A stretch of DNA of 6,044 nt, from the IMG/VR virus record IMGVR_UViG_2541047968_000008; one strand, 5' to 3'. The first letter of the stretch is position 1. Each line of letters starts with the position of its first letter. This stretch comes from a virus (taxonomy: Duplodnaviria; Heunggongvirae; Uroviricota; Caudoviricetes). The notes beneath the pieces were generated by a model, which was not told the origin of the DNA, made no database searches, and saw only the letters and a list, made by a program, of their open reading frames with translations. The translations under genes were made by a program, and so were the position numbers. Positions 1,240 through 6,029 of the stretch are shown here, in pieces.

Positions 1240-1839
1240 TCAGAATTTATAACCGACACCAACGATGAAACTGTTGGTACGCCAGTCACCGCTGCCGGAG
1301 CCTTCATAAGCGACGTCAACGGCCACGGATTCGGTCGGGTTAAACTGCACGCCAGCTCCCCACGCCAGAGAGGTGTTACTGTGGCGAGCGTCATCACTTC
1401 CGGTCAGCACGTCGTGCGTTTTTCCCTTGTTGTCAGTTACGCGGAGATAATCCCCGGAAAAAGTCGACACACGGCTGTAAGCCACGCCTGCCATCGCATA
1501 CGCGCTGAACCATTCATTCACGCGTACAGACGGCCCCGCCATCACGCTGAACCAGCGGTTACGCACGGAATCTTCATGCCAGCGGGTATCGCTGTAACGG
1601 GTAAGCTGGCGATTCTTGTCTCCTGCATAGCTGAACGACGTCACCATCCCCAGTGTGTCCGTAAACTCATAACGGTATTTCACGTTAATCCCGTTCAGAT
1701 CATCGCTGCCGGGGACGTTCGTCGAGGCATGAAGATACCCCGCGCTCAGCGTGGACTGATGTTCAGATGCCCATGCAGGCGCACCGGATACGGCCAGACA
1801 AATGGCTGCGGAAAAAATGGCGGCATAAAGTTTACGCAT
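1240..1839 (-). CDS. lom: Lom/Ail/PagC-family 8-stranded beta-barrel outer membrane protein (phage moron)
   Basis: 199-aa ORF with SD GAGAGG 5 nt upstream of ATG (1839..1837) and TGA stop at 1240-1242. N-terminal signal peptide [24 protein letters not shown] with AWA cleavage motif. C-terminal [26 protein letters not shown] ends in Phe as typical for OMP barrels and matches the lambda Lom C-terminus from memory. Same position after J as in lambda. Confidence 0.9.
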
Positions 1840-1861: not shown

Positions 1862-1887
1862 ATAAAAAAGGCACCATTTCTGGTGCC
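1862..1887 (-). terminator. Rho-independent terminator downstream of J
   Basis: 7-bp stem ggcacca (1870-1876) / tggtgcc (1881-1887) with 4-nt loop tttc. On the minus strand it is followed by TTTTTTATT (plus-strand a-run 1863-1869). Lies 21 nt past the J stop codon. Confidence 0.65.
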
Positions 1888-1908
1888 CTCATATGGGTTA
1901 TAACAATT

Positions 1909-4900
1909 TCAACGAATACTGATGCCGGAAGCGGCTTTTTTGGTCACAATCACCGTACAGTCGGTGATATTACCTGCCCGCTGATTGCCTTTATGGAAAA
2001 CCTTAAACTCCAGAGTGACGCTTCCCCTGCCACTCGGCATATCAATAACCGCACTGTAGCTACCGGGAATGGCCCCTTTAGTTTCTCTGGATGCGATTAA
2101 TACACCGTTTTTGCGAACTTCAAAACCATACCCCGTGTATCTTGTACCTCCCGGGTTATTACCACTTCCCGGATCGCTATACGCTATTCCGTTAAAGATA
2201 ATGGGCGGAATAATGATTTGACGGTCAAAGTTATGATCATCGCTGATGGTGACTGTAACCGTCCCGTTTGGTGTTTCCGTATTACCCCACGTACCAGCCT
2301 GTTTCGGGAATGATTTGGATACAGCTTTAACGAAGTCACCTCTGACCTGAGTCGCCTCCAGCATGCCCTTAATCGTACAGTTTTCATTTACCGTGACATT
2401 GTTGAGCGTCCCGGCGTTCGCATTCACACTGCCACTGATATCCGCATTTTTAGCGGTCAGCTTTCCGTCTGATGTCAGGGAAAATACCGGAGGACTGCCA
2501 CCACTGGTAATGGTGGGGGCCGTCAGGCGCTTCAGGAACACGTCGTTCATGAATATCTGATTGCCCTGCGCCACAAACATCGGCGTTTCATTCCCGTTTG
2601 CCGGGTCAATAAATGCGATACGGTTAGCGGCAACCAGAAACTGACTCAGTTTGCCTTCCTCCGTGTCCTCCATGCTGAGGCCAATACCCGCGACATAATG
2701 TTTGCCGTCTTTGGTCTGCTCAATTTTGACAGCCCACATGGCATTCCACTTATCGTTGGCGTCCTTCCACTCTTTCGAAAACTCCTCCAGTCTGCTGGCG
2801 TTATCCTCCGTCAGCTCGACTTTTTCCAGCAGCTCCTTGCCGAGATGGGATTCGGTTATCTTGCCTTTGAAAAAATCCAGGTAACCTTCCGCATCATCGC
2901 TCGCCCGACCGACGGCCTCCACGAATGCCGATTTGCCAACGGTGTTCACACTGCGGATATAAAAGTAATAATCATGGCCCGGTTTGATATTGATACTGGC
3001 GGCTATCCAGTACAGCCCCGTGCCAAGGTAGCGGGCTGTGGTTTCAACCTGCCTGATATCGGTAATCCGCGTTTCCGAGAACCAGAACTCAAATTGTACC
3101 GTCGGATCATAAACCGCAAGATGCGGCGTGGCGGTTATCTGAAAATAGCCCGGTGTCAGCTCAATCCGAGACGGCGCTGCCGGTGCGGCAATCCGGAACG
3201 ATACCGATGCCGGTTCGCCCTGCTGTCCCCACGCATTTACCGCCCGGACAGTCAGCCTGTAGTTCCCCAGCGCCAGTTGCGTGAAGCGGTATGTGGTTTC
3301 CGTCGTCCGGGCCGTGCTGACCAGCCGCTCACTGCCATCGTCCGCTGCCACGGTCAGGCGAAGCAGGAAGCTCACCCCCTTCACCACCTTCGGCGTGTCC
3401 CAGCGCGCCAGCACCTGATATTCCCCGCTGTCTGCGGTGACTTCGGCAGTCAGGTGCTGCACCGCGGGCGGCGTGACGCCATTCACCGTGCCGCTCAGGT
3501 CGCCGTCAAAGTGCGCCCCGTTATCCACGATGGCTTCTTTTTCGGGTACATGCTGCACGGCGGTGATGGCATACGTGCCGTCGTCGTTCTCACGGATACT
3601 CACACAGCGGAACAGGCGCTGGCGCAGCGTCGGCAGCTTCAGCCCCCACACACTGTATTCTGCAACGCCGTCAGGAACCCGGTTCACTTTCACCTTAAGT
3701 CCGTCGGTGACGGACTGAACCTCCACGCTGACCGGATTACCACTTCCGTCAACCAGGCTTATCAGCGTGGTACCGGAGGATGGCAGCGTGATTTCACGGT
3801 CGAGCGTCAGCGTCCGGGTCTGGCTGTTCACCGCCAGCACGCGACCACCGGTGCTGATACCGGCATAGTCATCATCGCAGATTTCAATGACATCCCCCGG
3901 TACATGGCGAAGCCCTTCCGCACCCACGCTGAAGTCCACGGTCTGCGTCTCCAGCAGTTCCGTTTTAATCAGCCACAGCCCGGCGCGGTGTGCCTGCCCC
4001 CGGCTGGTACAGCCAAAGGCATCCATCTTCGTGACATTACGACCGTAACGGGCAATGGCCTGCGTATCTTCAACAAGCTCTGTCGCCGTCTCCCAGCCGT
4101 TGTCCGGGTCAATCCAGTTCACCTCAACGGCATTATGGCGGTCCTTCAGGGCGCTGAAGCTGTAGCGGAACGGCGCGCCATCATCCGGCATCACCACATT
4201 ACTGCGGTTATAGGTCCACACCTTATCCGACGGTCGGTCCTGCACGAACGTCAGCGTCTGCCCGTTCCATACCGGCATACAGCGCATCGCCGAGCAGAAA
4301 TCACTGAGCACATCCCACGCCTTGCGCTGTGTGGTCAGGTACGCATTACAGGTGATGCGCGGCTCCGTGCCGCCAAAGCCGTCCGGCACTGACTGGTCGC
4401 AGTACTGGCCGATGACATACAGCGCCCATTTGTCCACATCCGCCGCACCAAGACGTTTCCCCATGCCGTAGCGTGGATGGGTCAGCATATCCCACAGACA
4501 CCAGGCCATGTTATTGCTGTATGCTGGCTTAAACGTTCCGTCCCAGATACCGCTGTATTGCCGAGTCTGCGGGTTATAGTTCGACGGCACCTGCAGAATA
4601 CGCCCGCGCAGATGATAATTACGGCTCACCTGCTGGCTGCCGAACTGCTCCGAATCCACCTGTACGCCGACCAGTGCCGTGTTCGGGTAGCACTGTTTCA
4701 CATCGATGATTTCGGTGTATGACGACCAGAGCGTTTTGTTCTGCAGCTGGTCTGTGGTGCTGTCCGGCGTCATCCTGCGCATCCGGATATTGAACGGGCG
4801 CGGCGGCAGGTTACCCACCACCACCGAGGCCAGATACTGCGAGGTGGTTTTGCCCTTAATGGTGATGTCTTTTTCCGTCACCCAGCCACCATTACGCTGT

Positions 4901-5322
4901 ATCTGAACCAGCAGGCGGACTTCCGACGGATTCCGGTCCCCCTTTGAGGTGGTTTCCACCAGTGCCTGCACACCGAAGGTAAAGCGCAGACGGTCGATGT
5001 TTGCCGACGTGATGGTCCTGGTAATCGGCGTGTCGTACTTCACTTCCGTACCCAGCACCGTCTCGGAGCCGGAGGATTCAAATCCCTCCGGCGGTGTCTG
5101 CTCCTGCTCACCGGCCCGGAACACCACCGTGACGCCGGAGATATTGGTATTCCCCTCACTGTCCAGCACTGGCGTACTGTTCAGCAGCACGCTTTTTAAT
5201 CCATCCACCGGACCTTCAACCGGCCCTTCGCTGATGGCATCGATCACACTCAGCAACTGCGTGGACTTCAGGTTGTCCTTCGCTTCGCGCGGAGTATGCC
5301 CCTTACTGCTGCCTTTACCCAT
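1909..5322 (-). CDS. J: Tail tip / central tail fibre host-specificity protein J
   Basis: 1137-aa ORF; N-terminus [60 protein letters not shown]... is near-identical to lambda gpJ (1132 aa) as I recall it and stays collinear for most of its length. Stop TGA at 1909-1911; start ATG at 5322..5320 preceded by GTGAGGA. The last ~150 aa diverge from lambda. Confidence 0.97.
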
Positions 5323-5381: not shown

Positions 5382-6029
5382 TCAGCGACCAATCACCACA
5401 ACCTGACCACCATCCCCTTCGTCTGCCGTGCTGATCTCCTGAGAGACCACCCGCGACCCCACGCGCATTTCACCGTACAGAACCGGCAGAACATTGCCCT
5501 GGGCAACCATGTTATCCAGTGAGGAGAAATAGGTGTTCTGTTTGCCGTTATCTGTACTTGCTGCCGTGGGCGTCCTGGCTTTCGGTGCCAGCATCTGCGC
5601 CACTCCGCCCAGGATCATACTGGCCCCTGCCGCATACATGCCCGATACAGCCGCGGCACCCAGCCAGCCCACAGGGTTCCACCATGCCACCGCAATCAGC
5701 GCCGCCCCCAGCACCACCTGAAACACACCGCCACTTTTAGCTCCCGCCAGACGCGGCACGATGTGGATCACGGCACCATTTGCCAGCGGCTCATTAAGAC
5801 GGGCAGACAATTCGGTTTCACCTGCATCACGCCCGGCAATGCGTACCTGGTACCAGCCGTCGCTCAGTTTCTGACGAAACGCCGGGTTCTGCATGGCCAG
5901 CGCCCGGATGGCTTCGGACCCCGTTTTCACTCGAAGGTCGATGCGGCGGCCAAATCGTTGTAAATCCCCGTAAAGGCAGATGCGTGCCATGCCCGGTGAC
6001 GCCAGAGGGAGTGTGTGCGTCGCTGCCAT
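5382..6029 (-). CDS. I: Tail assembly protein I
   Basis: 215-aa ORF; MAATHTLPLASPGMARICLYGDLQRFGRRIDLRVKTG... and C-terminal ...KQNTYFSSLDNMVAQGNVLPVLYGEMRVGSRVVSQEISTADEGDGGQVVVIGR match lambda gpI (223 aa) from memory. Contains a central hydrophobic Gly/Ala-rich segment. Stop TGA at 5382-5384; start ATG at 6029..6027 lies inside the K reading frame. Confidence 0.95.
   Translation of the reverse strand: MAATHTLPLASPGMARICLYGDLQRFGRRIDLRVKTGSEAIRALAMQNPAFRQKLSDGWYQVRIAGRDAGETELSARLNEPLANGAVIHIVPRLAGAKSGGVFQVVLGAALIAVAWWNPVGWLGAAAVSGMYAAGASMILGGVAQMLAPKARTPTAASTDNGKQNTYFSSLDNMVAQGNVLPVLYGEMRVGSRVVSQEISTADEGDGGQVVVIGR

Follow-up and report, generated by a model that had tools for sequence, protein, structure and literature searches.

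A 434-type receptor-binding domain recombined onto a lambda-like tail-tip protein J and probably directed at OmpC

The J protein encoded in this window (the whole 6,044-nt stretch of DNA that was analysed) ends, judging by its sequence, in a receptor-binding domain (RBD) of the 434 or h434 type, which was recombined onto a lambda/434-like J scaffold and appears to target the porin OmpC. We put the probability of this explanation, taken as a whole, at about 85%. The 434-type, OmpC-associated RBD of J is already well known, annotated and widespread, and the modularity of the J specificity region has been published (PMC6646904). The domain is therefore a textbook allele, very common and nothing unusual, a point that the first-pass annotation of this DNA had missed.

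All real genes of the window are on the minus strand, where they make up a lambdoid tail-tip module in the order I - J - lom - stf, as in both lambda and 434 (Table 1). The 434 record (OL657226) has terminators annotated at places equivalent to those of the two terminator-like hairpins, after J (before lom) and after lom. A promoter scan of positions 1100-2000 found no promoter and returned only these two hairpins, and a repeat scan found no tandem repeats in the window. The N-terminus of stf is intact across its visible codons and contains a long Ala/Ser-rich low-complexity stretch. Long open reading frames are also present on the plus strand, opposite J (2698-4392, 564 aa), opposite lom/J (1381-2100, 239 aa) and opposite stf (2-952, 316 aa), and these most likely arise as a side effect of the high GC3 and the repetitive coding of the minus strand.

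Table 1. Features of the window, with coordinates, strand and the basis of each assignment
Feature	Position	Strand	Basis
Gene I	5382-6029	-	Pfam Lambda_tail_I
Gene J (central tail fibre / tip attachment / host specificity protein)	1909..5322	-	ORF, 1137 aa + stop
Conserved J scaffold, codons 1-969 (hub, FNIII/Ig domains, helical shaft, beta-prism fibre)	2416..5322	-	946/969 aa identical to lambda J
Conserved junction block (crossover site)	2416..2564	-	93-100% identical between the window and all six references
RBD assigned to the 434 (h434) type, cdtI/phi458/Stx-phage sub-allele, codons 970-1137 + stop	1909..2415	-	PF12421 match and identity to 434/phi458
Terminator-like hairpin + T-run, just 3' of J	1867..1890	-	Pattern scan
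lom (Ail/Lom outer-membrane beta-barrel family)	1240-1839	-	Pfam Ail_Lom, 396.7 bits
Strong terminator-like hairpin, 3' of lom	1213-1192	-	Pattern scan
stf N-terminus	1175 to 1, runs off the window	-	Pfam phage_tail_N; 391 codons visible

The product of gene J is a lambda-like tip attachment protein J, both in its position within the tail module and in its full gpJ domain architecture, with FNIII-A_GpJ, Phage-tail_3, Ig_J, Ig_J_second, Phage_Tail_Tip and Ig_GpJ_C following one another, all well above their Pfam gathering scores. As references we used lambda J (NC_001416, 15505-18903; NP_040600) and 434 J (OL657226; UMO75286.1). The first 969 residues, 85% of the protein, are 97.6% identical to lambda J and agree with 434 J at 959 of 969 positions, which bears out the earlier statement that the N-terminal ~85% of J tracks lambda. 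434 J has the same length (1137 aa) and is identical to the window J at 1118 of 1137 residues overall. The exact 1137-residue protein is present in NCBI as 'host specificity protein J' of E. coli UMEA 3718-1 (WP_021577486.1 / ERA02523.1), in a 90%-identity cluster with 4,993 members. The best match among complete genomes reaches 98.1% for the full-length J gene and 96.9% for the whole window. The combination found here is thus an uncommon one, which is normal for a lambdoid mosaic, even if each of its pieces is familiar.

The divergence of J from lambda is confined to its C-terminal end. The last 300 residues of J share 97% identity with 434 J and 68% with lambda J, and all of the divergence from lambda falls after residue ~970. 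This end contains a match to PF12421 (Ig_GpJ_C), which Pfam describes as 'Tip attachment protein J, C-terminal receptor binding domain', at residues 1001-1136 (90.4 bits against a cut-off of 26.2; profile positions 1-134 of 135). Against lambda, 68 of 174 aligned RBD positions are identical (39% with gaps counted, 40% by tblastn), and three indels separate the two proteins: the window has two additional residues in one place, six in another and a net loss of four in a third region, which the aligner splits into small gaps. Against 434, by comparison, the RBD is identical at 159 of 168 residues (94.6%) without any indel, and against phi458 at all 168 (100%). The first-pass annotation had described the last ~150 residues as only loosely alignable to lambda, and this description is accurate, as are the C-terminus quoted in it and the ending ...KKQALGISVV that it gave for lambda J. 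The interval it gave for the divergent region, 1909-2450, was right to within ~35 nt, the divergence starting at 2415.

A tblastn search with the last 170 residues of J against 50,697 phage records returned a bimodal distribution of identities, with 74 records at 92.9% or more and the other 170 records at 47.4% or less. The upper group includes 434-type phages, the classical hybrid Lambda h434 imm21 (93.5%), mEp460, cdtI (98.8%), phi458 (100%) and many Stx1a/Stx2c-converting phages (99.4%). The lower group contains Stx phage 1717 (47%), Fels-1 (46%), phage 21 (43.6%) and lambda (40%), and the J proteins of HK97 and N15 were absent among the matches listed for this query. The RBD thus falls into a discrete class that already has a name, the 434 or 'h434' type. 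We defined membership of the class by an amino-acid identity of at least ~90% to the RBD of 434 J, the same indel pattern and separation from other classes, and with its 94.6% identity and colinear alignment the window RBD is assigned to it.

Within the class, the window RBD is a sister sub-allele of the one carried by 434 itself, from which it differs at nine residues (A970S, V978I, E980Q, S1004A, Q1008K, A1009V, N1019D, S1049D and R1099G). S1049 lies inside the six-residue segment that is absent from lambda and N1019 adjoins the two-residue insertion; in our judgement, several of the nine substituted residues are likely to occupy putative receptor-contact loop positions. The two RBDs differ at 8.5% of nucleotides, with a dS of 0.34 and a dN/dS of 0.08, and represent two old sub-alleles under strong purifying selection. 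The closest relatives of the window RBD are found in phi458 (OP434518), cdtI (NC_009514) and the Stx1a/Stx2c phages (LC7278xx), at 99.0-99.3% nucleotide and 98.8-100% amino-acid identity. Pfam and PDB sequence alignments place the domain in the fold family of the lambda RBD, and J aligns with the solved lambda J chains 8xcj and 8iyk as far as their ends. No solved structure of a 434-type RBD was found in the PDB; the best matches, 9wca ('A8 gpJ 713'), 8xcj and 8iyk, are closely similar to the window J only in the conserved shaft.

The transition between scaffold and RBD is abrupt. Identity to lambda, computed per 100 nt, is 86-100% down to position ~2423, passes through one transitional segment at 72% and stays at 44-57% from ~2322 to the stop codon, and dense mismatches begin at 2415, the position of codon 970. 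The maximum chi-square statistic against lambda is 942 at position 2371, where identity falls from 95.6% to 48.6%, and lies far beyond chance, the largest value among 200 permutations being 16.4. Against 434 the maximum is 40, at position 2415, with a permutation maximum of 22.5. To locate the exchange we aligned the 3' 1.1 kb of seven J genes (the window and six references) and scored identity per segment. In the shaft (3000-2565) the window is identical to 434 at 436 of 436 nucleotides and only 45% and 43% identical to cdtI and phi458, respectively. The adjoining junction (2564-2416) is again identical to 434 at 149 of 149 nucleotides, giving 585 of 585 for shaft and junction together (3000-2416). 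It encodes ...[20 protein letters not shown]...[16 protein letters not shown] and includes a 38-nt run (2469-2432) that is invariant in 7/7 J genes. Across the RBD (2415-1909) the affiliation is reversed: identity is 99.0-99.2% to cdtI (503/507), phi458 (502/507) and Stx2c_2409 (503/507), as opposed to 91.5% to 434 (464/507) and 52% to lambda (271/519). Forty sites are informative between cdtI/phi458/Stx2c and 434/mEp460_ev081; the two that precede the junction are 434-like and the 38 that follow it are cdtI-like, the last 434-like site being at 2530 and the first cdtI-like site at 2415. Homologous recombination within the shared junction block thus placed the RBD on a lambda/434-like J scaffold, and the mosaic exchange proposed by the first-pass annotation is upheld. 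This exchange agrees with the description of J residues 960-1132 as an independently recombining 'specificity region' module (Maddamsetti et al. 2018, PMC6646904).

Other parts of J also carry traces of exchange. Although cdtI and phi458 share the RBD of the window, the part of their J genes (3022-3640 of their loci) that corresponds to window positions 3000-2565 encodes a different and longer shaft, ~45% identical at the nucleotide level and with an insertion of ~100 nt, which results in a J of 1165 aa as compared with 1137 aa in the window. On this alignment, the helical-shaft/beta-prism segment looks like a second exchangeable module that is bordered by the same conserved junction. Two patches of the scaffold (3023-3122 and 3623-3722) are less similar to lambda (0.86-0.89) than to 434 (0.95-0.98), which indicates finer-scale mosaicism within the scaffold.

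Base composition records the exchange at silent sites only. The first-pass annotation had called the C-terminal region AT-rich on the strength of two 60-nt samples, and both samples reproduce (GC 0.433 at 2161-2220 and 0.717 at 3421-3480). They are, however, the extremes of the J gene, and at 48% GC the term is overstated for the RBD. GC content is 0.599 over codons 1-733, 0.518 over codons 734-969 and 0.480 over codons 970-1137, and the change at the breakpoint (0.518 to 0.480) is not significant (p=0.20). GC3 does change there, from 0.623 to 0.488 (p=0.008). The RBD of 434 has the same GC3 of 0.488, whereas that of lambda stays at 0.623 (p=0.016 against the window). The junction hence bears a modest but real compositional signature at its silent sites, and of the proposed GC step it is this part that stands.

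The largest GC step in J lies elsewhere: close to where the second Ig-like domain begins, at codon ~733 (window ~3122), GC falls from 0.60 to 0.52 and GC3 from 0.73 to 0.62. It occurs within sequence that is 97-100% identical to lambda and is also present in 434 and in lambda itself (0.592 to 0.523); being common to lambda in near-identical sequence, it is unrelated to the RBD exchange. We therefore rejected the drop in total GC as a marker of the exchange, since the main step is ~700 nt upstream and shared with lambda, and only GC3 supports it. The step at codon ~733 could be the trace of a much older boundary between modules of J, separate from the exchange of the RBD.

The h434 allele dates from early lambda-hybrid work, and OmpC is said to have been identified originally as the receptor of 434/h434 by Hantke in 1978. 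In the sequenced hybrid Lambda h434 imm21 (OM418627), J is lambda-like to approximately gene nt 2250 and 434-like beyond, so the h434 host-range determinant lies in the 3' third of J. Replacing the J of lambda with that of 434 retargets lambda to OmpC, the receptor of 434 (PMC3509688, PMC11101478, PMC12502783), and an additional OmpC-contacting loop has been predicted in 434 J (PMC12502783). [quoted passage not shown] The suggestion of a receptor other than LamB, made in the first-pass annotation, gains support from the 434-type RBD, with the use of OmpC by this exact sub-allele being our extrapolation from 434. Searching the literature, we found no receptor experiments for phages that carry the exact sub-allele (phi458, cdtI, the Stx1a/Stx2c phages, Perceval, Ayreon, mEp460 and the PhiR/ECOR13 collection). 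Phage phi458 forms plaques on E. coli K-12 MC1061 (PMC9701743), and since its RBD is identical to that of the window, the RBD is functional on K-12.

The C-terminal domain of J also targets OmpC in phi330 of EHEC and in Gifsy-1 of Salmonella (PMC12502783, PMC12312913). The RBDs of phi330, 434 and lambda share 35-40% pairwise identity (PMC12502783), and the C-terminal region of Gifsy-1 J is 18% identical to that of lambda (PMC12312913). OmpC-targeting RBDs are distant from one another, and the use of OmpC has therefore arisen on several RBD lineages. OmpC has also been reported as a target of the Stf of Ur-lambda (PMC12312913). A phage with the present tail module might accordingly combine two OmpC-directed adhesins, J and Stf, the specificity end of Stf lying outside the window.

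Lambda gpJ (NP_040600; PDB 8xcj and 8iyk) binds LamB and has the same domain architecture and PF12421 fold family as the window J, and the trimeric fibre and the triggering mechanism are presumably alike; the differences lie in the RBD, which is ~39% identical with three indels and is of a type whose published receptor is OmpC. By analogy, the three RBDs at the tip of the trimeric fibre would bind to OmpC, itself a trimeric porin, in place of LamB, and their bottom loops would reach into its extracellular opening. Binding would spread the bases of the RBDs, as solved for lambda and LamB, and this spreading would be passed on as a twist of the beta-prism fibre and a flip of the helical shaft. 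These movements would pull the tip to the membrane and open the tail for DNA ejection. We infer these signal-transduction steps from cryo-EM structures of lambda J with LamB (PMC11101478), and the docking geometry is extrapolated in the same way.

An ordinary LamB-binding J of the lambda type whose C-terminus has merely drifted would share the fold and family of the lambda RBD (PF12421), as the window J does, and low identity to lambda alone does not exclude LamB, because phage 21 uses this receptor (PMC11336670) with an RBD that is ~44% identical to that of the window. Yet drift should be gradual, and identity here drops abruptly at one point, from 95.6% to 48.6%. Over the RBD it amounts to 39-40% of amino acids and 48.6-52% of nucleotides, a long way from the more than 90% over the last 150 residues by which the first-pass annotation would have recognised a lambda-type J. 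The RBD is instead 94.6% identical to that of 434, whose J redirects lambda from LamB to OmpC, and we regard a drifted lambda-type J as very improbable. Still less credible is decay of the 3' end in a defective prophage, with the RBD no longer functional. The window probably comes from a chromosomal prophage and GC3 is lower in the RBD segment, both of which would fit decay, but the reading frame is intact to the same stop codon as in 434, dN/dS is 0.08, plaque-forming phi458 has an identical RBD and viable phage 434 shows the same low GC3 of 0.488.

The most credible of the alternatives is that the sub-allele of cdtI, phi458 and the Stx phages is of the 434 type by sequence and has shifted in specificity, either to another porin such as OmpF or to particular OmpC alleles, for example those of O157 rather than K-12. 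The nine substitutions relative to 434, several of which we place in putative loop positions, are compatible with such a shift, as are the age of the sub-alleles (dS 0.34) and the enrichment of this one in Stx1a/Stx2c phages of O157. Moreover, in both lambda and phage 21 a few changes in J are enough to gain a further porin, OmpC or OmpF, as receptor (PMC11336670, PMC6646904). A dN/dS of 0.08 nevertheless indicates conserved function, there are no indels relative to 434, and the plaques formed on K-12 by phi458, with its identical RBD, mean that a usable receptor is present in K-12. Taking both sides together, we think a shift of this kind unlikely. Were the sub-allele adapted to certain OmpC alleles or to an additional porin, a prospect that seems to us similarly doubtful, the two 434-type sub-alleles would divide the E. 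coli hosts between them, O157 and K-12-like strains being one example, and would influence to which strains Stx or Cdt phages can spread.

The OmpC-targeting 434-type RBD, which we continue to favour, is carried by a large part of the E. coli population. Its DNA matches 2,294 of 5,426 complete E. coli genomes, 2,092 of them at a coverage of at least 80%, and a 100% identical copy is present in at least ten. The window also illustrates clearly how modules are exchanged at a conserved junction. The type of RBD at the end of J predicts the outer-membrane protein that a lambdoid phage needs, and this need in turn predicts which strains are open to infection, lysogeny and conversion with Stx, Cdt or effector genes. 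A 434/OmpC-type label would thus provide an immediate receptor call for a domain that is found in roughly 40% of complete E. coli genomes.
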